From: a bacterium
GTDB lineage: Bacteria > Krumholzibacteriota > Krumholzibacteriia > LZORAL124-64-63
Direction: 5' to 3'
Assembly (NCBI GenBank): GCA_003353795.1
Contig: PIVY01000001.1
Coordinates: 16,932-80,931 of the forward strand
DNA length: 64,000 bases
Part shown: in pieces, positions 6,719-60,855 of the stretch
How the letters are laid out: each line of letters starts with the position of its first letter
Numbering within the stretch: position 1 is the stretch's first letter
The notes under the pieces: generated by a model
Databases searched by the model: none
Seen by the model: the letters and a program-made list of their open reading frames with translations, nothing else
Told to the model about the DNA's origin: nothing
Translations under genes and position numbers: made by a program

Positions 6719-8581
6719 TTACTGAAATCCCACGTCCCGCCCGGCGTTCTGCTCCTGCAGCCAGGCCATGAGCGGCTCGTAGTAGTCCAGCATCGCCGAG
6801 GCGGTGAGCGGCTCGCCGGTGGCCTCGTACAGCAGTCGATTCCAGTCGCGGGTCCCGCCCGCCGAGAGGATCGATTCGAGGTAGATGCCCACCTGGGCGT
6901 TGCCGTAGTAATTGGCGGCGTGCACGTCCTGCTGGAGGAGTTGCTCGCAGATGTAGCGGTGCAACTGGTGCAGGATCACGTAGCTGATGGCGTAGTCGTA
7001 GTACTGCGCAGGGTCGTCGTTGATGTGGGTCTTGGTGGCCGGGTCGCAGTAGTCCTCGCCGCGCTGGGACGGGGGCGCGATGCCCTGGTGCTCGGCGGCG
7101 TACTGCCACCAGCGCACGTTCCACTGATGGCGCGGAAGCTCTTCCTCGTAGAAGTCGTGTTCCCAGTGAGTCATCGTCCCGCAGGCGAAGGGCAGGAAGA
7201 CCACGGGCCCGGTGAGCGCTTCGTTCAGCAGCCACCGCACCTGGTCGGGCGCGTCGTCTTCGCGCAACATGCCGATCTCTTGCAGGTACGGTACCTGGCT
7301 GCTCGCCAGCTCGATGAGCGTGCCGATGGCCTCGTGGAAACCGCGGTTGGCGCCACGGCGCAGGAGGGGAGGCACCTCGGGACGGGCATAGCTGAGGTAG
7401 TAGTAGATGTGTCCCAGCTCGTGGTGCACGGTGCCGAACCAGCGGAAGTCGTTGCGCACCGACATGAGCGACCGCACGTCCTGGTCGAGATCGATGTGCC
7501 AGGCCGAGGCATGGGTGTTCTTACGGCGGTTGGCGTCGGCGGGCAGTTCGTAAAGATCGCTGCGGCCCCAGAAGGTCAACGGCAGCGCCTCGAAGCCCAG
7601 GCTCATGTAGAAGCGTTCGCCCTGCTCGATGATCCACTGCGGCGAAACGTCACGCAGCATGCCGTCCATGTCGATGCCGTCCACCACACCGGGCCACTCC
7701 TGGCCCCAGCGGTTCGGCAGCCAGTGGGCGGGGATGAGGCGAGGGACGTCCGGCGCGTTGTAGCGTGCCGCCAGTTCGTGGCGCACCCAGCAATGAAGCT
7801 GCTCGTACAGCGGGCGCATGCCCTCGAGCAGGTCGTCCATGAGCAGCATCATCTCGGCGCTGGTCATGCCGTAGTCGGCACACTGCAGGCCGAAGAAGGA
7901 ACTGAAGTCCATCTTCACGGCAACGGCGTTGCGCAGGGTCTGCAACTCGGCCAGACCGTCCTTGAGCGTTGGGCCCACCGTCTTGCTGCACTCCCAGACC
8001 GCGCGCCGCTCGCGCAGGTCTCGGCTCGCGAGCAGGATCTCGTCGAGTTCGTTGGGCGTGACCTCGCGCGGCTCCTGGCCGGGCAAGGTCAGCACGAAGC
8101 GGTGGCTGTAAAGCATGGCGTTCTGCGCGGCTTCGAACTGCAGCAGCTTGCGGACCGTGGCCGGCGCGGTGCCGGGATAGTTGGCGGCCAGTTGCCACGC
8201 CCGCTCGAGCTGCCGCTCTTCGAGTTCATTGAGATCCTCGGCGCGGCGCAGCTGTTGCAGCTGGTCGATGACCTCACGGCTGCCGACGTAGTCGGCCAGG
8301 GCCTGGGTCGCGGTGACCTCGGCCTTGCTGTTGGCCTCGGTGATGTCCACGTTGGCCTGCCACTTGGCGCCCTCGGAACCCGTCCAGAGCTCCCGGTAGG
8401 CATCGTTGTAGTCGTCGAGGAATTCGGTGACGTCGCCCTTGCTCGGGGGCGGGTGATCGGCGGCGACCTGGTGACGATCGCCGGGCGCGGCCGCATCATC
8501 CTTGCGCCCGAGCAGCAGGATCAGCGCACCCCCCGCAACGAGGAGGACCACGCCGGCGAGGGCCAGCCTGCGGATATCCAT
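6719..8581 (-). CDS. peptidase family M2 (angiotensin-converting-enzyme-like peptidyl-dipeptidase), membrane-anchored or secreted
   Basis: Zinc motif HHELGHIYYY with downstream GFHEAIGTLIELA, as in ACE-type M2 enzymes. ATG 8581 follows AAGGAG. N-terminal anchor MDIRRLALAGVVLLVAGGALILLL. Confidence 0.85.
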   Translation of the reverse strand: MDIRRLALAGVVLLVAGGALILLLGRKDDAAAPGDRHQVAADHPPPSKGDVTEFLDDYNDAYRELWTGSEGAKWQANVDITEANSKAEVTATQALADYVGSREVIDQLQQLRRAEDLNELEERQLERAWQLAANYPGTAPATVRKLLQFEAAQNAMLYSHRFVLTLPGQEPREVTPNELDEILLASRDLRERRAVWECSKTVGPTLKDGLAELQTLRNAVAVKMDFSSFFGLQCADYGMTSAEMMLLMDDLLEGMRPLYEQLHCWVRHELAARYNAPDVPRLIPAHWLPNRWGQEWPGVVDGIDMDGMLRDVSPQWIIEQGERFYMSLGFEALPLTFWGRSDLYELPADANRRKNTHASAWHIDLDQDVRSLMSVRNDFRWFGTVHHELGHIYYYLSYARPEVPPLLRRGANRGFHEAIGTLIELASSQVPYLQEIGMLREDDAPDQVRWLLNEALTGPVVFLPFACGTMTHWEHDFYEEELPRHQWNVRWWQYAAEHQGIAPPSQRGEDYCDPATKTHINDDPAQYYDYAISYVILHQLHRYICEQLLQQDVHAANYYGNAQVGIYLESILSAGGTRDWNRLLYEATGEPLTASAMLDYYEPLMAWLQEQNAGRDVGFQ

Positions 8582-8791
8582 TCCACTCCTTTCGCCGCGA
8601 CAAGAGTCAGCGACTGTACCGAACCCACGATGCCGCGAATCATAAGCACCCCGGCCAGCCCTGTAAATGGCGAGGTCGCCCCTCAAGAAGGCGACCCCAT
8701 CGGCCAGATTGGCGTTCGATACCCGTAGCGAGGTCCCCACCGCCGTCGCTGGTCACGCGGCGGGCGGCGCCCGCCGCCGGCCGTTGAGCTG

Positions 8792-8810
8792 CAGGCGCCC
8801 TTGGCGCCTG
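8792..8810 (-). terminator. hairpin just downstream of the protease stop
   Basis: CAGGCGCC-aag-GGCGCCTG (8-bp stem) sits 17 nt after stop 8827 on the minus strand. No U-tract. Confidence 0.35.
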
Positions 8811-8826
8811 TCAGCTCGAACGGCCG

Positions 8827-11307
8827 TCATTTGACGAGCACCAGCTTGGTCGTGCTGGCCACGCCATCGGATTCGAGTCTCGCGAAGTAGACCCCGCTCC
8901 CGAGCCGGCGGCCGGATTGATCGGTACCGTTCCAGGCCGCGGCATGGCGGCCGGCCGGCAGATCGGCATCGTGGAGCACGTGAACCAGGCGTCCCCGGGC
9001 ATCGTGCACCGTGACGCGTGCGTGAGCGGCGCTGGCCAGGGTCCAGCGTATCTCGGTGCGGGGATTGAACGGGTTGGGCGCGGCGCCGTGCAGGGCGGTG
9101 ACCATTCGAGGCGTCTCGGGCGCTGCGGTGGGGCCGATCTGCAGCGCCCGGATCTCGATGTCGTCGAGATTCCATCCGCTGTACTGCCAGCTCTCGTCGG
9201 TGGTCCCCATGACCCAGCGCAGGAAGACCGTGGCCTCACCGTCGGCGTGGAGGCTCAGGTCGTACTCCACCTGCTGCCACTGATCGTCAGTGATCTCGCT
9301 GCCGTTCTCCCACACGGTATTCCAGGTCGTGCCGTCGGTACTGACGCGCAGGTAGACGTGGTCGTAGGTGGGCTGTTCCACGTTGAGCCAGCGCTGGAAT
9401 CGCACCGACACCGACTGCAAGCTGGAGCAGTCGATGACCCCGGTGGTCAGGGAGTACTCGGGCAGATCGCTGGCGTAGTCGCCACCCAGGTTGTAGCCCA
9501 GCACGTTGCCGCCGGTATACCCCGCGGTCGGGTCGGCGTTGCCGTGCTGGGCGCCGCCGCCGCCGCCGGGCTCTCCGAACGCCCACTGGCCTTGCCGATC
9601 CCAGCCCGGATCGGTCTCCAGGTTCCAGGACATCACCGTGGTCACGCTGCCGACCTGGAGCCGGACCGGGCGGGTGGTGTCACCGTCGCCATCGGTGAGG
9701 TTGGTGAACGAGACGGTGCCGGCGTAGAGGCCGCCGGGCAGGTTCGCTGCCGACGCCGCGATGGACACCGTGACCGTGGTGGATGCGCCGACGCCGAGGA
9801 CCCCGCCACTGGAGTCCGTGTCGATCCAGGGCTGATCGGCGGTCACGCCAAAGGAAACGTTGGCGTCGCTGTTGTTGGCCAGGGTGTAGGCCAGGCTCGA
9901 TGGGGAGAACGGACCGCCGGGCTCACCTTGCGATTCGAGGCCGGAGAACGGCGTGACCACCAGACCGCTGGCGCCGGGATCGTAGAGGTCGAGGGCCAGC
10001 GGCGCGATGCCGATCGGGTCGAGCCAGTCGCTGAGCCGGGAACCGGCGGAACCGCCGCCGTTCCAGCTGACGGACAGGCGACCGTACCAGTCGGATTCGT
10101 TGTTGCCGCAGGCCGCATAGCCGCCGTGCAACTGGCCGATGATGTGGTGGTTGGGGCTGTAGAGAGGTGAGCCGCTGCTGCCCGGTTCGGTGGTGCCGTC
10201 ATCCCAGTCGATCACCCGGATGTGGGTGCCGTCGCCGGGGACGGCGTTGTTGAGGTAGCTGGTGGTGACCGTGGGGTCGTCCTCGAAGCTGATGGACTTC
10301 TCGTCGGTGCTCGGGTGGTGGATCGCCACGACGCCGGGCTGGTCGCCGTCGCTGCGATCCCAACCGGAATACGTGACGTCCCATTCCGGGTCTGGCAGTT
10401 CCTCGAGTTCCACGAGGCAGACGTCGCTGCCGGCGTACGCGGCGCGGAAAATGGTGCCGGTCTGGTTGTCGGCGAGCGAGCCGCCGCCCTGTTGCCCGCA
10501 CACGGGGCTCTGGAAGTTCCAGTAGACCACCACGCTGTGATCGTTGCTGCCGGAGATGCCGCAGTGATTGGCGGTGAGGAAGTAGGGCGTGGCGTCCTCG
10601 GCGGTGTTGTTGATCATGGCGCCGGTGCATTTCCAGATGCCGCCGATGGTGAAGACGCCGACGCTGTTGATCTCCGCGCGCCAGGGGTCGCCCTCGGGAC
10701 AGATCACGTCGTTGTTGCAGGAGCCGGACTTTTCGCCGAGCTGTTCGCCGAAGTACCGATAGCCCTTGCCGACCTGGTGCAGACTCAGGGCGTAATCATG
10801 GCGGCTTTCTGCGGGCAGCGTCAGCTCGATCACGATCTCGTCGCCGAGGACGATCGGCGACCAGAGCTGCCCGTGCGGGCGGTTGTCGCGCGCTGTGAAT
10901 TCGTGGGCGAGCTCGACCGTGCCGGTCGGATGCAGCACCAGCCGACCACCCTTGGGCACCCGGAACCGGTCGAATCCCAGATTCAGCGAGAGGGCGCCCT
11001 CGGCCTGGATGCGCAGACGCCAGAGCTGGAATCGCGGGTCAGGGAGGATCTCCCAGGTGCCGTGGGTTTCGGGCGTGATCGCCACGGATTCCGGTTCGGC
11101 GAATCGCTCCGGGTCGCCCTGAAGCAGGCGGACCTCGTCGTCGTCGGCGGCCTCATCGCGATCGACCGGCGTCAACGCCAGCTGCTCGACGGACGACAGG
11201 GGGCGGGCGTCCTGGAGGACGGCGGTGGGCACGACGTCGGCGACCGCGGGCATGGCGAGCATCAAGGCGCCAATGGCAACCAGTCTCATGGCGGTGGGGC
11301 GAATCAT
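8827..11307 (-). CDS. secreted S1 (lysyl-endopeptidase-like) serine protease with beta-sandwich domains and a FlgD-Ig/T9SS-type C-terminal domain
   Basis: Catalytic motifs YFLTANHCG (His), SDVCLVEL (Asp) and EPGSSGSPLY (Ser). A MAM/galactose-binding-like segment (...YLRVSTDGTTWNTVWENG...). C-terminus PNPFNPRTEIRWTL...GVYFARL...LVLVK. Signal MIRPTAMRLVAIGALMLAMPAVA. Confidence 0.85.
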   Translation of the reverse strand: MIRPTAMRLVAIGALMLAMPAVADVVPTAVLQDARPLSSVEQLALTPVDRDEAADDDEVRLLQGDPERFAEPESVAITPETHGTWEILPDPRFQLWRLRIQAEGALSLNLGFDRFRVPKGGRLVLHPTGTVELAHEFTARDNRPHGQLWSPIVLGDEIVIELTLPAESRHDYALSLHQVGKGYRYFGEQLGEKSGSCNNDVICPEGDPWRAEINSVGVFTIGGIWKCTGAMINNTAEDATPYFLTANHCGISGSNDHSVVVYWNFQSPVCGQQGGGSLADNQTGTIFRAAYAGSDVCLVELEELPDPEWDVTYSGWDRSDGDQPGVVAIHHPSTDEKSISFEDDPTVTTSYLNNAVPGDGTHIRVIDWDDGTTEPGSSGSPLYSPNHHIIGQLHGGYAACGNNESDWYGRLSVSWNGGGSAGSRLSDWLDPIGIAPLALDLYDPGASGLVVTPFSGLESQGEPGGPFSPSSLAYTLANNSDANVSFGVTADQPWIDTDSSGGVLGVGASTTVTVSIAASAANLPGGLYAGTVSFTNLTDGDGDTTRPVRLQVGSVTTVMSWNLETDPGWDRQGQWAFGEPGGGGGAQHGNADPTAGYTGGNVLGYNLGGDYASDLPEYSLTTGVIDCSSLQSVSVRFQRWLNVEQPTYDHVYLRVSTDGTTWNTVWENGSEITDDQWQQVEYDLSLHADGEATVFLRWVMGTTDESWQYSGWNLDDIEIRALQIGPTAAPETPRMVTALHGAAPNPFNPRTEIRWTLASAAHARVTVHDARGRLVHVLHDADLPAGRHAAAWNGTDQSGRRLGSGVYFARLESDGVASTTKLVLVK

Positions 11308-11361
11308 GGGAACCTCGCGAGCGTCTGGAGACAACGTCCGTACAAAAACACGACTAATTCA

Positions 11362-27438: not shown

Positions 27439-27993
27439 ATGTCCACGGCGAGTCGACAGGTCTGGAACTGGCGCGACGACACACCCACGCGGCGGCGTGA
27501 GGCGGCCGTCGCGCGCCTGCGGCGAACCGGTCTGGTAGGGGGCGTGGTGGCCCTGGTCGCGGGCACCGTACTGAACCTGGTGCTGGGCCACGTGATCGTA
27601 GGGCGGTTGCTGGTTACCCTCGGCGCGCTGCAGACCATGGCTGCCCTCTGGCGGCCGCACTTGCTCGCGTCGCCCTTGCGATGGCTGCAGCGCTTCGGCC
27701 AGCTGGTCGGCGCCGGGCTGGCCTGGTTGCTGTTGACGCCGCTCTGGCTGCTGGTCTTCGTGCCCGTCGGCTGGTGGCTGCGCCTACGTCGGCGTGATCC
27801 CCTGCACCGCGCACCGCTGGCGGCCGGGCTGACGGCCTGGATCCCACGGCGCCGGTCTTCCGATGCGGCATCGGCGGCGCGCCAGTTCCAGGACGAGGAC
27901 CGCGAGGCCCGTGAGCTCGAACGTCCCGAGTGTGCCTTGCCTGCGCCGGAACTCCTGGCCGAGGTCGACGACGCCGGAGGTCCGTCGGCGTGA
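27439..27993 (+). CDS. SxtJ-like small membrane protein
   Basis: Two hydrophobic hairpins (GLVGGVVALVAGTVLNLVLGHVIVG; LVGAGLAWLLLTPLWLLVFVPVGWWLRLRRRDPLHR) resemble the SxtJ family. Its stop overlaps the carbamoyltransferase GTG as GTGA. The start is uncertain (27439 versus 27382). Confidence 0.55.
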   Translation: MSTASRQVWNWRDDTPTRRREAAVARLRRTGLVGGVVALVAGTVLNLVLGHVIVGRLLVTLGALQTMAALWRPHLLASPLRWLQRFGQLVGAGLAWLLLTPLWLLVFVPVGWWLRLRRRDPLHRAPLAAGLTAWIPRRRSSDAASAARQFQDEDREARELERPECALPAPELLAEVDDAGGPSA

Positions 27994-29816
27994 ACATTCT
28001 CGGCATCAGCGCTTACTACCACGACAGCGCCGCGTGCTTGCTCCAGGACGGCCGGCTGGTGGCAGCGGCCCAGGAGGAACGGTTCACCCGGCGCAAGCAC
28101 GACGCCGCCTTCCCGCGCCACGCCCTGCGCTACTGCCTCGCCGAGGGAGGCGTCAGTAGGGACGCGGTGGATGCGGTGGTCTTCTATGACAAGCCCGTCA
28201 CCAAGTTCGTGCGCATCCTGAAGACCGCCTTCGCGGTGGCGCCGCGCGGCCTGCCCACATTCGTCCAGGCCGTGCCCACCTGGATGCGCCGCAAGCTGTG
28301 GATCCCCGCCGAGATCGCCACCGAGCTGGATCGGGCCGGCGCCGGCCGCTGCGGGCGCGTGCTCTTCACCGAGCACCACGAGGCACACGCCGCGAGCGCC
28401 TTCTTCGCGTCGCCGTTCGAGAACGCCGCCATCCTCACCCTGGACGGCGTGGGCGAGTGGGCCACGTCCAGCCTGAGCGCCGGCCGCGGCAACCGCCTGC
28501 GCCTCCTCGAGGAGATCCACTTCCCGCACTCCCTGGGCCTGCTCTACTCGGCCTTCACCTACTTCTGCGGCTTCCGGGTCAACAGCGGCGAGTACAAGCT
28601 CATGGGCCTGGCGCCCTACGGCGAGCCCCGCTACGAGCACACCATCCGCGAGCACCTCATCGACCTGCGCGAGGACGGCAGCTTCCGCCTGAATCTCGAT
28701 TACTTCGATTATCTCGGCGGCCTGCGCATGACCAACGCGCGCTTCGCCGACCTCTTCGACGGTCCGCCGCGCACCGCCGAGTCGGCCCTCACCCGTCGCG
28801 AGTGCGACCTCGCCCGCAGCATCCAGGCCGTCACCGAGGACGCGGTCCTGCGCATGGCCCGGCATGCCCACCGCGCCACGGGCGACCGGCGGCTCTGCCT
28901 CGCCGGCGGTGTCGCGCTCAACTGCGTGGCCAATGGTCGGGTGCTGCGCGAGGGGCCCTTCGACGAGCTCTGGATCCAGCCCGCGGCGGGCGATGCCGGC
29001 GGCGCCGTGGGGGCGGCCCTCCATGCCTGGCATCAACTCGAGGGCGGCGACCGGGTGCTCGACGGCCAGGACCGCATGGCCGGCGCCTACCTCGGCCCCG
29101 CATTCTCCGACGCCGACATCGCCGCCTGGCTCGACGCCCGCGACTATTCCTACACGACCCTCGGCGCTGGGGAACTCGAGCGAGACGCGGCTCGTCGCAT
29201 CGCGGCCGGGGAGGTCGTCGGACTGTTCCAGGGACGCATGGAGTTCGGCCCGCGCGCCCTGGGCAACCGGTCCATCGTGGGCGACGCGCGGTCGCCACGC
29301 ATGCAGTCGGTGCTCAATCTGAAGATCAAGTACCGCGAGAGCTTCCGCCCCTTCGCCCCGTCGGTGCTGGCCGAGCGCGCCCACGAATGCTTCGACCTCG
29401 ACGCGCCCTCGCCCTACATGCTGCTCACCGCGCCGGTGGCTCGCGAGCGCTGGACCGAGACCAAGGACGAGCCCTTCGACGACATCATCGCCACCGTGAA
29501 CCAGGTGCGGTCGGACATTCCGGCTGTGACCCACGTGGACCAGTCGGCCCGCATCCAGACCGTGCATGCGGAGACCAATCCCCGCTACCATCGCATCATC
29601 AGCGAGTTCGCGGAACTCACCGGCTGTCCCACGGTCATCAACACCAGCTTCAACGTGCGCGGCGAGCCCATCGTCTGCACGCCCAGCGACGCCTACCGCT
29701 GCTTCATGCGCACCGAGATGGACACGCTCGTCCTCGGCAACCATGTTCTGGAGAAGAGCGCCCAGCCGGCCTGGAACGAGGACGGCGACTGGCGCGACGA
29801 TCTGCCTCTCGACTGA
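27990..29816 (+). CDS. NodU/CmcH-family carbamoyltransferase
   Basis: VNILGISAYYHDSAACLLQDGRLVAAAQEERFTRRKHD, FTEHHEAHAASAF, LAGGVALNCVANG, GRMEFGPRALGNRSI, VINTSFNVRGEPIV. GGAGG lies 9 nt before GTG 27990. Confidence 0.92.
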   Translation: MNILGISAYYHDSAACLLQDGRLVAAAQEERFTRRKHDAAFPRHALRYCLAEGGVSRDAVDAVVFYDKPVTKFVRILKTAFAVAPRGLPTFVQAVPTWMRRKLWIPAEIATELDRAGAGRCGRVLFTEHHEAHAASAFFASPFENAAILTLDGVGEWATSSLSAGRGNRLRLLEEIHFPHSLGLLYSAFTYFCGFRVNSGEYKLMGLAPYGEPRYEHTIREHLIDLREDGSFRLNLDYFDYLGGLRMTNARFADLFDGPPRTAESALTRRECDLARSIQAVTEDAVLRMARHAHRATGDRRLCLAGGVALNCVANGRVLREGPFDELWIQPAAGDAGGAVGAALHAWHQLEGGDRVLDGQDRMAGAYLGPAFSDADIAAWLDARDYSYTTLGAGELERDAARRIAAGEVVGLFQGRMEFGPRALGNRSIVGDARSPRMQSVLNLKIKYRESFRPFAPSVLAERAHECFDLDAPSPYMLLTAPVARERWTETKDEPFDDIIATVNQVRSDIPAVTHVDQSARIQTVHAETNPRYHRIISEFAELTGCPTVINTSFNVRGEPIVCTPSDAYRCFMRTEMDTLVLGNHVLEKSAQPAWNEDGDWRDDLPLD

Positions 29817-29840
29817 CGGCGCTACGAGGAGACCACCCGC

Positions 29841-30005
29841 ATGCACTACCTGCGCTACCTGGGACGCCTGCTCGCCGAAATCGGCGCCTACGCCCGGCGC
29901 AACAAGGCGTGGTGGTTGGTGCCGCTGGTGATCGTGATGCTGGTGCTGGGGCTCTTGATCGTCACGGGACAGGCGGCGGCGCCGTTCATCTACACGCTGT
30001 TCTAG
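29841..30005 (+). CDS. 54-aa DUF5989/SxtK-like small membrane protein (not in the ORF track)
   Basis: ATG 29841 is preceded by GAGGAG (29826-29831). MHYLRYLGRLLAEIGAYARRNKAWWLVPLVIVMLVLGLLIVTGQAAAPFIYTLF-stop. One TM helix and a terminal 'APFIYTLF', as in DUF5989 proteins that follow carbamoyltransferases. Confidence 0.7.
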   Translation: MHYLRYLGRLLAEIGAYARRNKAWWLVPLVIVMLVLGLLIVTGQAAAPFIYTLF

Positions 30006-30086
30006 ACCGGGTATGATGTCCTGGAATCTGGTATCATTGACGTCTCCGTCGAGCGATTCTTGCGAACACATCCTGAGGGGGAGACC

Positions 30087-30920
30087 ATGATTCGCCACAA
30101 ACTGTTTCTCTACCTGTTCATTCTTGCCGCGCCGGTCCTGTGGCTGACCGGTTGTTCCGACGAAGATTCCGTCGCCCCTACGGAAGAGTTCGCCATCGAC
30201 ATCACGGTCCTCGATGCGGCGGGACAGCCCCTGGCCGACCGGTCGGTGATCGTGATGCCCTTGCTGCCGCCCGGCGTCCTTCAGGATGACCTGCAGGCGG
30301 CGATGCCGTCGGCGGTGCAGATTCCCTTCCAGGTGCCCGATCCCTGCCTCGTCGATCTGGAGATCCGCGACGTCGCGGGCGCCACGGTCCGCATGCTCCT
30401 CTCCGGCGACGAGGCGCCGGCGGGTCAGCACACCGTTGTCTGGAACGGACAGGACGACGCGGAGGTCGACCGATACACAGGCTGGTACGCCGCGGTGCTC
30501 ACCTGTCGGGATGCCACCACCGGCGAGGTGCTGTTCACCGACGCGCGCGACATGCTGATGGCCACCGTGGACTTCGACCGCACCGAGTTCCGCACCGACT
30601 CGGACGGCAAGCTGACCATCACCGACCGCCGCGTGGTGCCGGGTTTCTGGGACGTGCCGGAGATGCGATTCACCGACGAGAACGGCAACCTGACCGGGCT
30701 GCACACGTTCACACGCTGGACCCAGATCCGGGCTGCCGGCGACCGGGTAGAGTTCGAGGCGGTCGACGGGCGGCAGAGCTACACGCTACAACAACCGACA
30801 CTGAATCTGGACGCGCCCGCCGGCGCGACCGCTGCGGCGATCACGAGCAGTCTCGTGGACGTGCCGCCCGTGGACGGCGAATTCGAACTCGGGAATCCCC
30901 GCCCGAACCCGTTCAACTGA
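30087..30920 (+). CDS. lipoprotein with internal FlgD-Ig-like domain, ending in PNPFN (one-module paralogue)
   Basis: GAGGGGGAG precedes ATG 30087. Lipobox LWLTGCSDE. VDLEIRDVAGATVRMLLSGDEAPAGQHTVVWNGQDD...GWYAAVL (FlgD-Ig-like). DGKLTITDRRVVPGFWDVPEMRFTDENGN. Last residues GNPRPNPFN. Confidence 0.75.
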   Translation: MIRHKLFLYLFILAAPVLWLTGCSDEDSVAPTEEFAIDITVLDAAGQPLADRSVIVMPLLPPGVLQDDLQAAMPSAVQIPFQVPDPCLVDLEIRDVAGATVRMLLSGDEAPAGQHTVVWNGQDDAEVDRYTGWYAAVLTCRDATTGEVLFTDARDMLMATVDFDRTEFRTDSDGKLTITDRRVVPGFWDVPEMRFTDENGNLTGLHTFTRWTQIRAAGDRVEFEAVDGRQSYTLQQPTLNLDAPAGATAAAITSSLVDVPPVDGEFELGNPRPNPFN

Positions 30921-31000
30921 CGCGGTCCGGTTGATCCGACTGTGTGTGCGGAGTAGCCTTAGAGGTGCCAACGAACCTGTATCCTGGAGGGGGATCCAAG

Positions 31001-32467
31001 TTGCGTCCATCATCTGCACTCGTCTTGCCCATCTGTGTTCTCGCCTTGGCGCTGCTGACCGGCTGCAGCGACGACGACCCGCCCACCGGCCCGGCCCCGG
31101 AGTTTTCACTCGCGCTCACGGTGACGCACCTCGACGGCAGTCCCGCCGCCGGCGTCCGGGTGGCCGGCATGCCCGTTCTCGCGAACTGGATGGCGCCCGC
31201 CGAGCCCCCAGTGGAGGGCGGCGCCGCGCCGTGGCGGCGCATTCGGGTCGGATTCGACATGCTGGCCAACGGTTTTGCCAAGGTCACGGTCATCGACGTG
31301 GCCGGCGACGAGGTGCGTACGCTTCTTTCCGCACCCATTCCATCGGGCGTTCACCTGGTCGAGTGGGACGGCCTCGACGACGACGGCCAGCCGCTGCCCG
31401 GCGGTTGGTACGACGTGCATATCGTGCTCACCTGGAGCGACACCGCCGGTCGCAGCTCCGATGTTCCGGTGCTGCTCGAGGTGTGCGATCCCGACTGGCA
31501 CTCGCTGGGCACGACCGGCCCGGACGGGCGCCTCGTCATCGATGACCGGCGCCTGGTGCCGGCGTTCTTCGACTGCGAGCAGGTCGGCGGCATGGAGTTC
31601 ACCACCGAGACCCTGCTGCGGCTGGAGAACCAGTACGGCGACGGTCAGTATGTGAGCTTCGACGCCGCCGACGCGGAGATCGACCTGGATGCAGTGTGGA
31701 ATCCGGAGTTTGAGACGTTCCGGTTCGAGATGCTGGTAGTGGACCAGGCCGGCGACCCATTGGAAGGAGTCGCCGTCGGCTCCCTGCCGGCCTTGCCCGA
31801 ATCGGTCTGGCCGTGGCCGCCCAACAATGAGCCCACGCGCTCCCGGGTCGCCATTCCGTTCGAGTTGACCGAGCCGCTTCCGGTGCGGATCCATATCCAG
31901 GACGTGACCGGCGCGGTGATCCGCGATCTTCCGCTCGGCCATCTCGCTGCCGGGGAGCACCGGGCGATCTGGGACGGCCGCGACGAGAGCGGAATCACCA
32001 CACGAAGCGGGTGGTACGAGGTCGTGATCCTGTTCTCGGAGTACGGCGGCGATCCCTACTGGACCGCTGTCGATTCGGCGGGGGTGGTGCACGTTCCCTT
32101 CGACACGGGTCACGTATCGCTGGGCGAGACCGACGCCGACGGTCGCCTCGTGATCACGGATCGCCGCCTGGTCCCTGCGCTGTGGGACCTGCCCGCCGTC
32201 ACGTTCCGGGACGAGAACGGCGACGACATCGGGACCTACGAATTGACGACCACGACCTGGCTCAACTGCCGCAGTGATGTCTCCGGCGGCGCGTGGGCAG
32301 TGGTGGAGGCCGTGGACGGTGCTCAGGCCGTTCCGGTGTCCCTTTTGCCGCCGGATGGGCACCGCGCACCTTCCGGTGGAACCATGGTGGTCGACAAGGG
32401 AGACGGGCCGGACAACCCGCCGCCTCCGATCTCGCTCGGCGGGCCGTTTCCCAACCCGTTCAACTAG
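31001..32467 (+). CDS. lipoprotein, two-module paralogue of 30087-30920, ending in PNPFN
   Basis: TTG 31001 lies 7 nt after GGAGGGGG (an ATG at 30944 is possible but lacks an RBS). Lipobox ALLTGCSDD. Two copies of the Ig-like block plus the 'DGRLVIxDRRLVPAxxD' block. Last residues GGPFPNPFN. Confidence 0.7.
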   Translation: MRPSSALVLPICVLALALLTGCSDDDPPTGPAPEFSLALTVTHLDGSPAAGVRVAGMPVLANWMAPAEPPVEGGAAPWRRIRVGFDMLANGFAKVTVIDVAGDEVRTLLSAPIPSGVHLVEWDGLDDDGQPLPGGWYDVHIVLTWSDTAGRSSDVPVLLEVCDPDWHSLGTTGPDGRLVIDDRRLVPAFFDCEQVGGMEFTTETLLRLENQYGDGQYVSFDAADAEIDLDAVWNPEFETFRFEMLVVDQAGDPLEGVAVGSLPALPESVWPWPPNNEPTRSRVAIPFELTEPLPVRIHIQDVTGAVIRDLPLGHLAAGEHRAIWDGRDESGITTRSGWYEVVILFSEYGGDPYWTAVDSAGVVHVPFDTGHVSLGETDADGRLVITDRRLVPALWDLPAVTFRDENGDDIGTYELTTTTWLNCRSDVSGGAWAVVEAVDGAQAVPVSLLPPDGHRAPSGGTMVVDKGDGPDNPPPPISLGGPFPNPFN

Positions 32468-32481
32468 TCGGAGTTGGATTC

Positions 32482-32514
32482 AGCAAGCCGCCGGCAGAAC
32501 GCCGGCGGCTTGCT
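32482..32514 (+). terminator. intrinsic terminator after the second lipoprotein gene
   Basis: AGCAAGCCGCCGGC-agaac-GCCGGCGGCTTGCT (14-bp perfect stem) followed by GTTT, 15 nt after stop 32467. Confidence 0.6.
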
Positions 32515-32561
32515 GTTTCCCCACAGGTTGACGACATTGCGGCCTCCCTCTAGGAGGCCCC

Positions 32562-40348: not shown

Positions 40349-42178
40349 CTACCGGAAGACCAGCCCGATGCGCCAGTGGGTGTATCGGTAGAACTGCTCG
40401 TACTCGCCGGTGACCCGGGGTCCGTAGACGACCGTTCCATCCTGCTTCCAGACCAGCTGGTCGTCGTATTCCAGCTTCATGTCGACCCGGTTGAATCCCA
40501 CTTCCAGGAAGAGCGAGGGGCCGCCGTCGTCCCGACCGCCGTATCCCGGTTCCCAGCCGAATCCCCAGCCGTAGATCCAGGTACCCGGGGCGATGTCCGC
40601 CGGCAGGTAGAGGTCGGGCGCCTCGGGAGGATCGTTCACGGCCTCGGCGCCGAGGGCTACCTGTCCGAATCCCATGGCCCCGAACGCGTGGATGTAGATG
40701 GACGGGTTGCCGATGAGATGCCACTTCAGGCCGAGGCCGACCCGGTGGAAGAGGAATGGCCTGGGCTCCTGGTTCTCGTCGTCGCCGGCCACGTGGTGGT
40801 TGCCGCTGCTGAGAGCTCCGTAAAGCAGGCCGAACTGGATGCTGCGGCTGCGGCGTAACCACAGGCTGGCGCTGAAGCCCCAGGTGAAGTCCTGATAGAG
40901 GGGCAGGTCGGGTTCGGGATCGGTGGTCGCGTCGAACGCCAGGTCGAATCCCAAGCGATTGAACGACTGGCTCTTCTTCGCCGAAGTGGTTTCCAGTTCC
41001 ACGTCCAGGGTCTCGACCGCGTTCTCCTCGATCTGCACCGTGCCGCTCCAGCGGCCGTTCGCGTGCTCGATCTCCACGCCGTATCGGCCGACCAGCAGGG
41101 TGAATCGATCGGGTGCGTGGCCGAGGCGACGTCCGTCCACCGTGACCATGGCCGAGATCGAATCGCCGTCCTCGTCGCGGGCGCGGACCGCGAGGTATCC
41201 TTCGCGCGCCGACGGCGTAAACTCCAGGATCCGGGCCTCGCCGGAGGACATGACCAAGTGGTCGCCCATCTCGTGATATCGCGGATCGACGATGCGCACG
41301 GTGTGCGGACCCGGCCGCAGGGGCCAGCGGTGAATGGGAGTGCGCCCGATGGAGCGGTCGTCCACCACCACGGCCAGGTCGGGCGGCGTGGAAATGACGT
41401 CGAGCACACCGAACTCCGGCGTGAGCGCCCGTTCCAGGCGCAGTCTGCCGACGGAGGCCGACACGTGCAGGGTCTCGATCCACGGTTCGTGATCGGCGAG
41501 GTCCAGCGCCAGTTCGTGGGTACCGGGGTCAACGTCCACCATGCAGGGCGTCGCGTGGCTGTGAGGCTCTCCGTCGATCCGGACGTCGGCGCCCGGGGGA
41601 TCGGTGATCACCTCGAGCTCCACGGTACGGAAAACGCCGGGTTGTTCGGTCGCCACGGCGATGGGCAAGGTCGCGAACACTGCGGCGGCGGCGGTGGTCA
41701 CCGCGGCCTCGAGTTCCAGGGGATCGGCCCCACCCACGCGCCGCATGACCAGCAGGTTGGCTTCCTCGGTGGCGTACAGCGAGAGGATGACTCGCAACTC
41801 GCCGCCGAAGTGGACCACCTGGCCGGTGACCACGTAGTGCGCGCCGAGGCGTCGCCCGGTCTCCACGGCGCAGTCACCGACACATTCGCTGAGCCGGGTG
41901 CCCGGCGGCAACAGCTCCAGGATGCTGTCACGCGTCATCACGATGGACTGTTCGGGCGGAAGAGCCAGGCGGGCTTCCGAGCGGACCACGTCGGCGAGAT
42001 AGCTCACGGCATGGGGGTCGAGGGTGGAGAGGTTCTCGAAATCGAGCACCGCGACCCGTACGCGTTCCGGCGGGGCGTCGGCGACGCCCTGAGCCGAAGA
42101 GAGCGAGACGAGGAACGAGAATGAGACCAGGAGCGCCGCCAGCAGGCAGGCGGACCATACGGCGCCGGGGCGAGTCAT
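40349..42178 (-). CDS. secreted PEGA-repeat protein with an N-terminal FlgO/LpoB-like domain and a C-terminal beta-barrel-like region
   Basis: Signal MTRPGAVWSACLLAALLVSFSFLVSLSSAQG. VRVAVLDFENLS...CVGDCAVETGRRLGAHYVVTGQV. PEGA-like TDPPGADVRIDGEP...TPC and STPPDLAVVVDDRSIGRTP. The C-terminal 200 aa have alternating aromatic/Gly strands. Confidence 0.65.
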   Translation of the reverse strand: MTRPGAVWSACLLAALLVSFSFLVSLSSAQGVADAPPERVRVAVLDFENLSTLDPHAVSYLADVVRSEARLALPPEQSIVMTRDSILELLPPGTRLSECVGDCAVETGRRLGAHYVVTGQVVHFGGELRVILSLYATEEANLLVMRRVGGADPLELEAAVTTAAAAVFATLPIAVATEQPGVFRTVELEVITDPPGADVRIDGEPHSHATPCMVDVDPGTHELALDLADHEPWIETLHVSASVGRLRLERALTPEFGVLDVISTPPDLAVVVDDRSIGRTPIHRWPLRPGPHTVRIVDPRYHEMGDHLVMSSGEARILEFTPSAREGYLAVRARDEDGDSISAMVTVDGRRLGHAPDRFTLLVGRYGVEIEHANGRWSGTVQIEENAVETLDVELETTSAKKSQSFNRLGFDLAFDATTDPEPDLPLYQDFTWGFSASLWLRRSRSIQFGLLYGALSSGNHHVAGDDENQEPRPFLFHRVGLGLKWHLIGNPSIYIHAFGAMGFGQVALGAEAVNDPPEAPDLYLPADIAPGTWIYGWGFGWEPGYGGRDDGGPSLFLEVGFNRVDMKLEYDDQLVWKQDGTVVYGPRVTGEYEQFYRYTHWRIGLVFR

Positions 42179-43294: not shown

Positions 43295-45331
43295 CTAGAA
43301 CGCCCCGTCGATGGCTGCGTCGACCACGGTATCTTCGGCGTGCTCGGCCAAGGTCACCCGCAGGAGTGGATCGCGGTCCATGGCCTGCGCGATGGCGAAC
43401 TCGGCCGGCGAGTTCCGAGCCCAGGCGCGCCGGGCGATGCCGTTGTTCACGTCCCAGTTGAGCATCAGGTTCAGGCGCCGACCGGCATCGTCCGAGCCGT
43501 CGAGAACCATGCCGAAGCCGCCATTGACGACCTCGCCCCAGCCCACGCCGCCGCCGTTGTGGAGCGACACCCAGGTGGCGCCGCGGAAGCTGTCGCCGAT
43601 ACAGTTCTGCACCGCCATGTCGGCGGTGAACATGCTGCCGTCGGTGATGTTGGCGGTCTCGCGGAAGGGACTGTCGGTGCCCGAGACGTCGTGGTGGTCA
43701 CGGCCCAGGACGATGGGTGCGGAGATCTCGCCCGACGCGATGGCGCGGTTGAACGCCGCGGCGATCTGCCGACGTCCCTGCTCGTCGCTGTAGAGGATGC
43801 GTGCCTGCGAGCCCACCACCATGCGGTTCTCGCCGGCCTGGCGGATCCAGCGCAGGTTGTCGAGGTATTGCTGGCGCGTCTCGGGCGGCGCAGCGGCGGC
43901 CAGTTCTTCGATGACGTCGCCGGCGATACGGTCGCTCACGACGAGGTCCTCGGCCTTGCCGCTGGCGCAGACCCAGCGGAACGGTCCGAAGCCGTAGTCG
44001 AAGCACAGGGGCCCCATGATGTCCTCGACGTAACTGGGATAGGTGAAACGACCGTCGGGCTTGGCGATGTCGGCGCCGGCGCGTGAGCACTCGAGCAAGA
44101 AGGCGTTGCCGTAGTCCCAGAAATGAAGGCCACGCTGTTTCGCCAGCTTGTCGACGGCGCCGATGTGGCGCATGAGCGAGGTCTGGACCCGCTCCTTGAA
44201 GCCCTCGGGGTCCCGCACCATCATGGCGTTCGACTCATCCAGCGACATGCCCGCCGGATAGTAGCCGCCGGTGTAGGGGATGTGCAGGGAGGTCTGGTCG
44301 CTGCCCAGTTCCACCTCGACGTCGCTGGCCAGCAGCGCTTCCCACAGGTCGACCACGTTGCCGAGGTAGGCCAGCGCAACGGCTTCGCGGTTCTTCTTGG
44401 CGTGCTCGATACGCACAAGCAGCGCGCCCACGTCCTCGTGGATCTCGTCGACCCAGCCCTGCTCGTGGCGCTTGTAGGCCGCGGCGGGGTTGATCTCGGC
44501 GATCACGCCGATGCAGCCGGCGATCACGGCCGCCTTGCCCTGCGCCCCGCTCATGCCGCCGAGTCCACTGGTGACGTAGACCTTGCCGGCCAGGGGATGG
44601 TCGCCCTCGCCGGACAGGTACCGGCGGCCGGCGCCCAGGATCGTGATGGTCGTGCCATGTACGATTCCTTGCGGACCGATGTACATGAAGCTGCCCGCGG
44701 TCATCTGTCCGTAGCTCGTCACGCCGAGGGCGGCCATGCGGGTGTAGTCGTCGCCGGAGCTGTGATTGGGGATGACCATGCCGTTGGTCACCACGACCCG
44801 GGGCGCGTCGGGATGCGACGGGAACAGGCCGAGGGGATGCCCCGAGTACATGACCAGCGTCTGCTCCTCGGTCATCTCGCTCAGATAGCGCATGGTGAGC
44901 AGATACTGCGCCCAGTTCTGGAAGACCGTGCCGTTGCCGCCGTAGGTGACCAGTTCGTAGGGGTGCTGCGCCACAGCGGGATCCAGATTGTTCTGGATCA
45001 TGAGCATGATGGCGGCAGCCTGCCGGCACCGCGCGGGGTACTCGTCGATGGGCCGCGCGCGCATGGCGTAGGTCGGCCGGAAACGATGCATGTAGATGCG
45101 GCCGTGCTCCTTCAACTCGCCGGCGAACTCGGGCGCGAGGTCGGCGTGCATGGCGGCCGGGAAGTAGCGCAACGCGTTGTGAAGAGCCAGCCGTTTCTCG
45201 TCGTCCGATAGCAGCATGGGGCGTTCGGGGGCGCGGCTGATGGTCGCATCGCACGCCGGCGCGGCGGGCATGGCCGCGGGGATGCCCTGGCGGATCTGGT
45301 CCTGGAACTGGCTCGCGGACAGGTCGTTCAC
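43295..45331 (-). CDS. hutU: urocanate hydratase (long form)
   Basis: GTG 45331 is preceded by AGGAGG. YGGNGTVFQNWAQY, SGLGGMSGAQGKA, IVLGRDHHDVSGTDSPFRET and VSLHNGGGVGWGE are urocanase blocks. Confidence 0.9.
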   Translation of the reverse strand: MNDLSASQFQDQIRQGIPAAMPAAPACDATISRAPERPMLLSDDEKRLALHNALRYFPAAMHADLAPEFAGELKEHGRIYMHRFRPTYAMRARPIDEYPARCRQAAAIMLMIQNNLDPAVAQHPYELVTYGGNGTVFQNWAQYLLTMRYLSEMTEEQTLVMYSGHPLGLFPSHPDAPRVVVTNGMVIPNHSSGDDYTRMAALGVTSYGQMTAGSFMYIGPQGIVHGTTITILGAGRRYLSGEGDHPLAGKVYVTSGLGGMSGAQGKAAVIAGCIGVIAEINPAAAYKRHEQGWVDEIHEDVGALLVRIEHAKKNREAVALAYLGNVVDLWEALLASDVEVELGSDQTSLHIPYTGGYYPAGMSLDESNAMMVRDPEGFKERVQTSLMRHIGAVDKLAKQRGLHFWDYGNAFLLECSRAGADIAKPDGRFTYPSYVEDIMGPLCFDYGFGPFRWVCASGKAEDLVVSDRIAGDVIEELAAAAPPETRQQYLDNLRWIRQAGENRMVVGSQARILYSDEQGRRQIAAAFNRAIASGEISAPIVLGRDHHDVSGTDSPFRETANITDGSMFTADMAVQNCIGDSFRGATWVSLHNGGGVGWGEVVNGGFGMVLDGSDDAGRRLNLMLNWDVNNGIARRAWARNSPAEFAIAQAMDRDPLLRVTLAEHAEDTVVDAAIDGAF

Positions 45332-45531
45332 GTCGGTCCTCCTGGCTGGATCGTCTCGACCGGCAACATAGCAAACGGCCCTGGCGGCCGAAAGGACTTC
45401 TGCCGCGATCCGGAGGAGGCCGGCGTGCGGGGACTCGGGGCCGGGGGGTTGCCTTCGGCATCCCGAATACCGTATCCTTGAGGTACGGGATTGCCACCCC
45501 TGATTCCCAACCCCTGGGAAAGGTCCATGAC

Positions 45532-46476
45532 ATGACAGGATTCGCCTTACACAAGGCCAGCCCGCTGGTTTTCGTGGTCCTGCTACTGTTCGCGCTGCCC
45601 TCAACCGCCAAATTGCTGATCCCCCAGGACGTCCACGGTGTGACCGTGGTTCTGAGCGGAGGCTGGGAGTATCCGGATCTGACGGTGCGCTGGTCCGACG
45701 ACAGCGACGGTCTGTGGGTGTTCCGCTCGGACGGCGCCAGGCGGTTGTATCGGCCCGAAGAGCTGGTCGGTATCCGCGACGCCGCGGGCGGTGACGTGAC
45801 ACGGACCATCATTCCTCCGTCGGTTATGCCCCGTCTGGCGGTGATGCCGGGGCAGCCCACGGTTCCGGGTCAGCCACTGCCAGAGCAGCCGCCGGGCGAG
45901 ATGGGTGGCGGCGACCCACCCGCGGAGCCGCGCATCCGGGATTGGCGATTCCTGCTGGGCATCGAGGCCGGCTGGGGCAAACCTCACGACAACGATTTCC
46001 TCAACAGCCGTGGCGGTCTCGGAGTTGGCGCGAGCGTGCGCCTGCAACTCGGCGGCGGAATATACCTCGCCGGTGGCTACGATCGTCAGGCCCTTCACAT
46101 GGAATACGGCGACGTGCTCTATCCGGAAGACGGTATGGAGTTCGCTAGCCTGCAGTATGGGGCCGACGACGGTCAGCTGCGCGGATTCTGGGCCGGGCTG
46201 GCGCTGCTCTCGGCGGCGGACGGCCCGGAGGCGGCCCGTTTCTATCTCGAGGGCGGCGTCGGTCGTTACGAGGTGGTGGGCATGCCGGTCTTCAGCGCTG
46301 AAGACGCATACCTGGGCTACCACGCGGGCGTGGGTTTCTTGATTCCGCTCGGCCCTGCGATCGCCCTGGATCTGGGTGCTCGCGGCACTCACGTCGTGAA
46401 TCTGGATCTCGGCTATGGCGACGACACCCACTCGGTGGTCGCCTTCCGTGCCGGTCTCGCCATTCTCGCGCGCTGA
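45532..46476 (+). CDS. exported protein: N-terminal small beta domain, Pro-rich linker, C-terminal OMP-type beta-barrel (paralogue A)
   Basis: Signal MTGFALHKASPLVFVVLLLFALPSTA. GWEYPDLTVRWSDDSDGLWVFRSDGARRLY. Linker PGQPTVPGQPLPEQPPGE. Gly/aromatic alternating strands to the end (VVAFRAGLAILAR). Confidence 0.6.
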   Translation: MTGFALHKASPLVFVVLLLFALPSTAKLLIPQDVHGVTVVLSGGWEYPDLTVRWSDDSDGLWVFRSDGARRLYRPEELVGIRDAAGGDVTRTIIPPSVMPRLAVMPGQPTVPGQPLPEQPPGEMGGGDPPAEPRIRDWRFLLGIEAGWGKPHDNDFLNSRGGLGVGASVRLQLGGGIYLAGGYDRQALHMEYGDVLYPEDGMEFASLQYGADDGQLRGFWAGLALLSAADGPEAARFYLEGGVGRYEVVGMPVFSAEDAYLGYHAGVGFLIPLGPAIALDLGARGTHVVNLDLGYGDDTHSVVAFRAGLAILAR

Positions 46477-57090: not shown

Positions 57091-57274
57091 GGCTCGTTCC
57101 GGAGAGAGCTGGAGCAAAATCCGACGTGGGCGCCGGCGCGTCTGCGATGCTAGTATTCTCCGGCGACCGGTGGCCGTCAACCTGCGGCCTCGGTGAACCT
57201 GGACTTCGATCGCATTTCGGTCGATCATGGAACCCGAAATCTGCAGTTTCCAGCTCCGAGAGGTGATCACGATC

Positions 57275-58384: not shown

Positions 58385-58456
58385 CCGCTTCCCGGTGACG
58401 GTTTTTCCTTTTTTTGGCGCTTCTCCCCTGGCAGAAGCGTCAAATTCTGCTAATCC

Positions 58457-58485
58457 TTGATCGTTCCGTCGAAGCCGTGTAACTT
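58457..58485 (+). promoter_or_regulatory. candidate sigma70-type promoter of hppA
   Basis: TTGATC (58457-58462), a 17-nt spacer, then TAACTT (58480-58485). Preceded by an unusual T-rich tract GGTTTTTCCTTTTTTTGG. About 118 nt upstream of ATG 58604. Confidence 0.3.
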
Positions 58486-58603
58486 GGGCGCCGCCCGGAT
58501 GCGGAGGAAACCGCTCCGGGAATGGCTGCGGACCGTCCGGACGTCCCGCCTGCCTCGATGTAGACCGCGCTGGTCGCGGTCGTTCTGCAAGGAGAACTCG
58601 TCG

Positions 58604-60619
<2,016 letters not shown>

Positions 60620-60646
60620 ATCGGGATACATCACGGATCGGTGACA

Positions 60647-60678
60647 GGCGGCCCGAACCCACATGGGGGCGGGCCGCC
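60647..60678 (+). terminator. hairpin after hppA
   Basis: GGCGGCCCG-(14-nt loop)-CGGGCCGCC sits 28 nt after stop 60619, followed by CGTTCGTT. Confidence 0.4.
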
Positions 60679-60855
60679 CGTTCGTTCCCCAAACCCTCAC
60701 CAAGGCGACAGAATTCGTCAGCAGGGACAATCTCCGCGGTTCTACAGCTGATCCCTTGTGTTGCCTTTTGCTCCGGTATTTGCCCGACGATTAGAAGGTG
60801 ACCTTAACCTATAAAAAAGAAATCTGTACTATTTCGACCTAGAAACGTGAGTAGA

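Follow-up and report, generated by a model that had tools for sequence, protein, structure and literature searches.

A lipoprotein family ending in PNPFN and the candidate displaced first strand of its immunoglobulin-like domain

Why do two adjacent lipoprotein genes stop exactly at the peptide with which a secretion domain begins? This question is raised by a 64,000-nucleotide stretch of a Krumholzibacteriia genome (GenBank assembly GCA_003353795.1, contig PIVY01000001.1), hereafter the window, to which all positions given without a locus name refer. Two of its genes, here called gene 1 and gene 2, end on the sequence PNPFN, which elsewhere in the window opens a protease's C-terminal domain (CTD) of type IX secretion system (T9SS) type. 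We observed that this ending is conserved across a large family of lipoproteins and that, relative to canonical CTDs, it has changed places with an internal immunoglobulin-like (Ig) domain, of which it is probably the missing first strand.

Two tandem lipoproteins and the family they belong to

Gene 1 runs on the plus strand from ATG 30087 to TGA 30918-30920 and encodes 277 amino acids (aa; P0005), matched over their full length by the family profile described below (E 1.2e-86). Gene 2 follows on the same strand after 80 nt and encodes 488 aa (P0001) between TTG 31001 and TAG 32465-32467, with two matches to the same profile (E 1.4e-113). This TTG, behind GGAGGGGGA, is most likely the start of gene 2, and the database copy P0001 uses it as well. 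The last codons common to both genes are AAC CCG TTC AAC plus the stop codon, on AACCCGTTCAAC, and yield PNPFN-stop. Six-frame translation of the window gave PNPFN three times, namely at the two gene termini and at the start of the protease CTD.

The two genes are tandem paralogues that carry one and two copies of a single module. In BLASTP, gene 1 aligned with module 2 of gene 2, the module nearest to it, at E 3e-36 and 1.7e-38 (the former with the tail included) and with module 1 at E 1e-19 and 3e-17; the two modules of gene 2 aligned with each other at E 5e-21. The first-pass annotation, made from the letters of the window, had described tandem lipoproteins with one and two module copies, both reaching PNPFN-stop on identical nucleotides. 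Its coordinates and sequence hold, and the repeated blocks that it saw align significantly (E 1e-19 to 2e-38). Pfam FlgD_ig (PF13860) scored 74.3 bits over two stretches of gene 2 (best stretch 282-342), passing its gathering cut-off of 27 bits, and 25.2 bits, slightly under that cut-off, in gene 1; the CTD models TIGR04183 and PF18962 (cut-offs of 23 and 27 bits) matched neither protein at E up to 1. The search with both FlgD_ig and TIGR04183 that had been proposed thus bore out the first model, narrowly missed in gene 1, and not the second. The rest of a CTD was not found downstream either, as had been noted before: no other open reading frame (ORF) of the window matched the family profile.

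The reference CTD of the window belongs to an 835-aa trypsin-like protein (Trypsin_2, FlgD_ig) and scored 31 bits on TIGR04183 against a cut-off of 23. It lies on the minus strand at 8827-11334, which corrects the first-pass annotation. The family profile matched it first with the tail segment (residues 734-757) and then with the Ig (758-824), in line with the earlier view that PNPFN is the entry segment of a FlgD-Ig/T9SS-type CTD and that the internal Ig blocks of genes 1 and 2 are without it. Judged by its sequence, the protease CTD would imply T9SS-type cargo in this organism. The window ORFs that were scanned included no T9SS machinery such as SprA/Sov, PorV or PorU.

We then turned to the relatives of the two proteins. 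Orthologues at 34-56% identity share a PNPFN-type ending, which answers the check on orthologues proposed in the first-pass annotation. YPNPFN ends each of the three two-module homologues that are not identical (39-53% identity), and the approximately 35 residues before it vary. One-module homologues end in RPNPFN (in a Krumholzibacteriia metagenome-assembled genome, MAG), FPIPYN or YPNPFN, and two distant ones are without the tail. One alignment-based homologue search gave only 8 proteins, its candidates being dominated by FlgD_ig words. When 1.84 billion cluster representatives were searched exhaustively with the profile, 248 matches fell below 1e-30, the top 150 of which were examined for their endings. 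They include about 75 short representatives of less than 50% mutual identity; approximately 55 of these end [YFRH]P[NVCI]PFN-COOH, and in most of them acidic residues come directly behind a lipobox. An alignment of 47 representatives, all with the tail and with 25-56% identity to gene 1, had only six invariant columns: the lipobox Cys, G113, T170, P185, P273 and P275. F276 and N277 were conserved at 90% or more, and G174 and D180 were nearly invariant. Since the columns of the tail are conserved in this alignment, neither a recent truncation nor an error of assembly can account for the ending.

Metagenome contigs were also scanned for TAYCCNAAYCCNTTYAAYTRA, and ORFs of at least 100 aa that ended in frame on YPNPFN-stop were kept. 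The family profile matched 35 of these 41 ORFs, 26 of them over almost its full length (E 1e-30 to 1e-108). Among the six others, two (L021, L121) come from a variant that has an additional Fn3-like domain before the tail, and are fragments truncated at the 5' end; four look like chance occurrences. This set was preselected for Tyr at -6, and the unbiased figures are those from the profile search and the 47-sequence alignment. As 35 of the 41 scanned ORFs fall into one family, the PNPFN ending is a hallmark of that family and not a tag common to unrelated proteins.

Contigs with family members range from 29% to 71% GC, which speaks against the lineage-specific family that had been considered at first. 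The family is widespread, occurring in a Krumholzibacteriia genome and on many metagenome contigs; its taxonomic range is read mostly from the GC content of the latter, and an alignment of six sequences found only three loci among genome contigs. Members of low GC end ...W-x-L-x-Q-N-Y-P-N-P-F-N, exactly as canonical CTDs encoded on those contigs begin. Pfam and NCBIfam hold no model dedicated to the PNPFN-ending family, and a full-text literature search for 'PNPFN' returned no paper. Two-module members ending ...W-D-P without the tail were observed at L005 354-1697 (+) and in P0034 and P0097, one of them from an uncultured Fibrobacteraceae MAG. The tail was lost, or never acquired, in some branches of the family.

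Several loci differ from the basic arrangement. In a variant architecture, seen at L068 1978-3165 (-) and also in L086, L121 and L021, the family core is followed by an Fn3-like domain of about 125 aa (...W-K-T-N-W-E-I-N-N-x-G-F-E-I-Q-R...) and then by ...F-S-L-x-x-N-Y-P-N-P-F-N-stop. At L037 8-794 (-), one member is divided between two frames that overlap (profile positions 1-130 and 161-275), which reflects a frameshift or a sequencing error. In the Krumholzibacteriia MAG, the gene immediately upstream of the family gene (L001 5490-7689, the same as L003 ~7424-9623) is called as a 694-aa repeat protein with an out-of-frame, meaningless C-terminus, and an intact CTD lies in another frame at 7297-7689; a frameshift or assembly error is probable here. 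Tandem duplication recurs at L002 5920-7568 (+), where adjacent one-module genes of 273 and 267 aa both end on PNPFN-stop; that contig has 66% GC, and the neighbours are hypD/hypE-like genes and a resistance-nodulation-division (RND) efflux operon. A CTD-bearing protein lies less than 1 kb from the family gene in 6 of the 30 loci with enough flanking sequence, and L005, at 333 bp, is a seventh case (the loci are L074, L098, L122, L018/L112, L047, L003 and L005). These nearby proteins are mutually unrelated (M14 carboxypeptidase, GLUG repeats, beta-propeller, FG-GAP/dockerin-like). A dedicated operon partner was considered and dropped, since the neighbours differ between the window, L001 and L002 and the nearby CTD proteins are not related to each other.

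Signal peptide, lipobox and a Cys that is invariant in the 47 sequences identify the products of genes 1 and 2 as predicted bacterial lipoproteins. The lipobox reads LWLTGC in gene 1, followed by SDED, and ALLTGC in gene 2, followed by SDDD. The family consensus after it is C-[SG]-D-D-[DG], with D or E in 52 of 66 sequences at +3 and in 48 of 66 at +4. The lipoprotein export signal (LES) of Bacteroides is CS(D/E)2, and SDDDD in B. fragilis (PMC5080379, PMC6222051); a polar residue at +2 and two or more acidic ones at +3/+4, by which an LES is recognized, are present in C-SDED of gene 1 and C-SDDD of gene 2. Because of this resemblance of C-S-D-D/E-D to the Bacteroides signal, the proteins are probably located on the cell surface. 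Similarly to surface lipoproteins of Bacteroidota, most members have S/G-D-D-D at +2 to +5 behind the lipobox. In contrast to them, the hosts are not Bacteroidota, the closest named relative being Krumholzibacteriia.

Fold of the module and order of its segments

The structure of the gene 1 product was predicted by AlphaFold2 using the 47 sequences, which gave a mean predicted local distance difference test score (pLDDT) of 88.5 and a predicted template modelling score (pTM) of 0.80. Six strands were predicted in the Ig (residues 77-83, 87-95, 100-110, 113-119, 132-141 and 148-158). The best Foldseek matches in the PDB were FlgD hook-cap structures, at E 1e-5 to 6e-5 over 150-195 aligned columns and with template modelling (TM) scores of 0.4-0.5 on the target; a weaker model predicted earlier matched FlgD as well. 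The root mean square deviation of these matches was 14-20 Å, so the relative orientation of the domains differs from that in FlgD. At the level of sequence, the family profile matched the PDB FlgD Ig at E 3e-11.

FlgD of the hook cap (PDB 7eha, 7bhq, 3osv, 3c12) is a hybrid of a tudor-like domain and a fibronectin type III/Ig domain. The first-pass annotation had divided the module into three parts, an opening motif (a), an Ig-like block (b) and a further, conserved block (c). The repeat is real; its parts (a) and (c), however, appear to form one beta domain with the Ig inserted, as in FlgD, whose two-domain core is the best Foldseek match; given the different domain orientation, this reading is moderately supported. 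A carboxypeptidase-regulatory-like reading of (a) and (c) was set aside: it had nothing but a PF13620 label on one distant relative, and Foldseek favours the FlgD core. The family thus shares with FlgD a structural match over the whole module, sequence homology of the Ig and its predicted insertion in a second beta domain. In contrast to FlgD, its proteins have neither the N-terminal helix/export region nor a flagellar gene context, and they have a lipoprotein signal, module duplication, the PNPFN tail and a different predicted domain orientation. FlgD models of NCBIfam matched the Ig part only, at 20-60 bits versus cut-offs of 230-383. The products of genes 1 and 2 are members of the FlgD_ig superfamily, and not FlgD.

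In the 47-sequence model, the linker before the tail (residues 241-260) had a pLDDT of approximately 57, and the tail (261-277) was placed with high confidence, at 87-95, with beta bridges at residues 267-268, 272, 274 and 276. The linker between core and tail is variable in sequence and measures 23-37 residues in 46 of the 47 members (median 27), a length that suits a fixed reach within one molecule. The tail itself, [FW]xLxxxYPNPFN, equals the first segment (12-14 residues) of T9SS type A/FlgD-Ig CTDs. When all ORFs of the window and of the collected loci were compared with the family profile, 14 distinct canonical CTD proteins, the window protease included, gave both a tail match and an Ig match. 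In all 14, the tail part of the profile (~231-275) lay directly before the Ig part (~70-136), the reverse of the order in the family, where the Ig precedes the tail; in 13 of these proteins the two matches met to within 0-2 residues. The Ig matches reached E 1e-7 to 1e-16. Homologous segments thus stand in swapped order relative to the canonical CTD, the relation by which a circular permutation is recognized at the sequence level.

The topology of the CTD bears on this permutation. It is a seven-stranded sandwich with the sheets beta4-3-6-7 and beta5-2-1 (PMC11285876), and since beta1 is an edge strand, it can be supplied separately. According to cryo-electron microscopy work on substrate-bound translocons of Flavobacterium johnsoniae, the conserved motifs of type A CTDs specify the fold and not contacts with the translocon, with the exception of a near-invariant, functionally important Lys near the C-terminus (PMC10994853). 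A counterpart of this Lys was found in at most 2 of the 47 family sequences at positions before the last Ig strand. Compared with the FlgD-Ig-like form of the T9SS type A CTD (TIGR04183 / PF18962; ...F-x-L-x-Q-N-Y-P-N-P-F-N-P-x-T-x-I...K-K-x-L-L-L-K), the family has the first 12-14 residues as its tail, an internal Ig homologous to the rest and the same Ig sandwich. Unlike that CTD, it has the pieces swapped, with approximately 100-115 residues of outer beta domain plus linker between Ig and tail, so that the six-strand Ig is internal and only the 12-14 residues stand at the extreme C-terminus; it also lacks a model match at threshold and the terminal Lys, and its signal peptide is that of a lipoprotein. 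Genes 1 and 2 therefore do not encode T9SS CTD proteins, which they fail to be by model score, C-terminal position, Lys and type of signal peptide.

Possible roles of the tail

How can these observations be brought together? We favour, with moderate confidence, the view that the tail is the displaced first strand of a circularly permuted CTD-type Ig, which folds back and acts as a structural piece, not as a sorting tag. A structural role is preferred because of the swapped homology, the confident placement of the tail, the length of the linker, the role of the CTD motifs in folding and the absence of the Lys. Among the ideas put forward in the first-pass annotation, strand complementation or a circularly permuted Ig agrees with the swapped profile order and with the tail placement by AlphaFold2. 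The module would consist of a FlgD-core-like beta domain with a FlgD-type Ig inserted, and the six predicted strands of the latter can be read as beta2-beta7 of the seven-stranded sandwich, beta1 being absent. The C-terminal [FWY]-x-L-x-x-x-[YF]-P-N-P-F-N-COOH would be the missing first segment. Tethered by the flexible linker of approximately 27 residues, it would fold back, presumably within the same molecule, as a latch or cap that makes the domain in effect circularly permuted; in all likelihood it would lie next to beta2 in the Ig of the final module. Adhesion and surface structure are candidate biological roles. The end of the chain right after Asn may be understood in the same way: a canonical chain runs from this Asn straight into beta2, and here no additional residues would fit, because beta2 would be entered from the insertion point. 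Isopeptide or Asn-cyclization chemistry at the terminal Asn was set aside, given that canonical CTDs conserve the same Asn.

A number of results weigh against this interpretation. The Ig exists without the tail in some relatives, namely in part of the two-module proteins and in one-module proteins of a subgroup that measures 230-245 aa, and two-module proteins that have the tail combine two Ig domains with one tail. An extra domain of approximately 125 aa stands between core and tail in L068 and L086, both family matches, and weakens the argument from linker length. The tail matches in the CTD proteins are individually weak (3-13 bits, independent E values of 0.008 to 90); such scores are expected for 12-20 residues, and the argument for permutation leans on motif identity and constant position. 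De-permuted constructs, in which tail and Ig were joined, reached 13-15 bits on TIGR04183 (cut-off 23) in 3 of 4 cases and gave no match for gene 1; on Pfam models, too, the gains were weak and stayed below threshold. An AlphaFold2 run with six sequences had a pLDDT of 65 and a disordered tail (pLDDT ~28), and was superseded by the 47-sequence run. Moreover, docking within and between molecules looks the same in the prediction of a monomer, and the strict stop at Asn would equally suit a partner that reads a free C-terminus.

The last two points lead to the alternatives. In donor-strand exchange between molecules, the tail would fill the open Ig edge of another copy of the same protein, of the tandem paralogue or of the tail-less first module, producing head-to-tail oligomers or fibres on the surface. 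This is rather unlikely in our view, even though a long flexible linker, tandem paralogues both here and in L002, the single tail for two Ig domains in gene 2 and the edge position of beta1 would all suit it, and complexes of chaperone-usher pilins with their chaperones were among the weak Foldseek matches (E ~1e-2). Donor-strand-complemented pilins, of the chaperone-usher and type V (FimA/Mfa) kinds, likewise have an Ig-like domain that lacks an edge strand and receives it from a terminal peptide, and type V pilins of Bacteroidota are also lipoprotein precursors (PMC4789730). The family differs from them in belonging to another fold family, FlgD-like and not FimA/Mfa-like, and in lacking an usher, chaperone or processing-protease context; among the Foldseek matches listed, FlgD stood on top and no FimA/Mfa structure was recognized. 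The narrow range of linker lengths is better suited to reach within one molecule, as the prediction also favours, and no neighbouring assembly gene is conserved. A bolder version is more doubtful still: that intermolecular insertion of the PNPFN strand builds a lipid-anchored surface fibre or lattice from T9SS-CTD parts, as a third independent case of donor-strand polymerization, or else that the tail docks on T9SS cargo or machinery as a mimic of CTD entry.

We consider it improbable, too, that the tail is a free C-terminal peptide ligand, read by a T9SS or attachment component, a C-terminus-binding protease, a PDZ-like domain or a CTD-bearing neighbour, and serving in anchoring, sorting or regulation through mimicry of the CTD entry segment. 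A ligand of this kind would account for a chain that always stops exactly after Asn, for a motif identical to that of CTD cargo on the same contigs and for the CTD proteins within 1 kb of the family genes counted above. However, the ending is restricted to one family and is not found on unrelated cargo, the adjacent CTD proteins are of unrelated kinds, AlphaFold2 docks the tail on the body of its own protein, and the motifs of CTDs determine the fold in F. johnsoniae, with the one conserved Lys missing from the family Ig. The minimal sorting tag suggested in the first-pass annotation finds no support for the same reasons, that is the confinement to one family, the fold-specifying motifs (PMC10994853) and the absent Lys. 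As to a truncated pseudogene, an error of assembly or the remnant, no longer functional, of a CTD that was lost, the identity of the tail with the first 12-14 CTD residues and the existence elsewhere of a frameshifted CTD gene (L001) and a frameshifted family member (L037) could be brought forward. We judge this hardly credible, since dozens of independent assemblies, spanning 29% to 71% GC, share this ending, invariant tail columns stand beside a variable linker and no CTD-coding frame lies downstream.

Features of the window and meaning of the ending

The features of genes 1 and 2 and of the protease are collected in Table 1. Within module 1 of gene 2, C-D-P-D-W-H (window ~31484-31501) is invariant in all 4 two-module proteins and occurs neither in module 2 nor in one-module proteins.

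Table 1. Positions of genes 1 and 2, their parts and related features in the window
Feature	Position	Strand	Basis
Gene 1, one module, 277 aa, ends PNPFN-TGA	30087..30920	+	ORF, sequence, family profile
Gene 1, predicted signal peptide and lipobox LWLTG-C23, then SDED	30087..30155	+	Sequence; Cys23 column invariant in family
Gene 1, part (a), putative N-terminal strands of outer beta domain, residues 34-59	30186..30263	+	AlphaFold2 strands 36-42, 55-58; Foldseek FlgD core
Gene 1, part (b), putative inserted FlgD-type Ig, residues 74-162, six predicted strands	30306..30572	+	Pfam, PDB profile match, AlphaFold2
Gene 1, part (c), putative C-terminal outer beta domain, residues 163-236, includes DGKLTITDRRVVPGFWD	30573..30794	+	Conservation; strands predicted by AlphaFold2 within 175-235
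Gene 1, linker, residues 237-263	30795..30875	+	pLDDT ~57; family length distribution
Gene 1, tail GEFELGNPRPNPFN, residues 264-277	30876..30917	+	Column conservation; pLDDT 87-95
Gene 2, two modules, 488 aa, lipobox Cys22 at 31064-31066, ends PNPFN-TAG	31001..32467	+	ORF, family profile
Gene 2, module 1, residues 23-235, Ig ~31229-31489, without own tail	31067..31705	+	BLASTP versus gene 1; alignment
Gene 2, module 2, residues 236-449, Ig ~31832-32104	31706..32347	+	BLASTP versus gene 1; Pfam FlgD_ig
Gene 2, tail PISLGGPFPNPFN, residues 476-488	32426..32464	+	PNPFN invariant in four two-module orthologues
GC-rich hairpin, 15 bp	32481..32515	+	Folding energy
Trypsin-like protease with canonical CTD beginning ...LHGAAPNPFNPRTEIRWTL	8827..11334	-	Pfam Trypsin_2 and FlgD_ig; TIGR04183

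The hairpin 3' of gene 2 is perfect over its 15 bp (dG -40.5 kcal/mol, z -6.6) and is followed by GUUUCCCC. It had been described as a strong terminator; a terminator scan after gene 2 made no call, the U tract being weak, and the hairpin probably marks the end of the transcript. Neighbours of the two genes in the window are a carbamoyltransferase, a major facilitator superfamily (MFS) transporter and a PAS-kinase/receiver protein. The carbamoyltransferase (Carbam_trans_N and Carbam_trans_C) and then a short hydrophobic ORF that ends at 30005 lie directly upstream of gene 1, together at 27930-30005 (+), and a promoter-like site was found at 29989-30017 between that short ORF and gene 1.

Other genes on the minus strand deserve mention. 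Adjoining the protease, 6719-8740 encodes a full-length homologue of Peptidase_M2, the angiotensin-converting-enzyme (ACE) family (E 1.8e-102); bacterial ACE-like enzymes are uncommon. An 835-aa ORF at 43295-45802 has urocanase domains at residues 247-804, and its N-terminal extension of approximately 245 aa comes either from a start called too early, as can happen at high GC, or from an extra domain. A 609-aa protein with two PEGA domains is encoded at 40349-42178. The 1796-aa ORF at 55340-60730, which had no Pfam match at E up to 1e-5 and is overlapped by several long ORFs of the opposite strand, may be spurious in DNA of 67% GC or may encode a large novel protein.

Within the FlgD_ig superfamily, these proteins would represent a permuted or split CTD-type Ig in an uncharacterized lipoprotein family. 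A lipobox with acidic residues, a FlgD-like module and ...PNPFN-COOH together provide a diagnostic for this widespread and unnamed family. On the reading that the tail is a displaced first strand, the family would be a natural case of an Ig domain with that strand relocated to the opposite chain end, would tie the inserted Ig domains of FlgD type to the CTDs of T9SS type, and would independently support the notion that the PNP motif of CTDs determines fold rather than recognition. Were the tail exchanged between molecules instead, a new principle of surface polymers would follow. For annotation, the ending serves as a warning that such genes are not pseudogenes and do not encode truncated CTD proteins. 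The family offers, with a mechanism that rests on prediction, a clear and uncommon example of how a domain can evolve, together with a rule for annotation.

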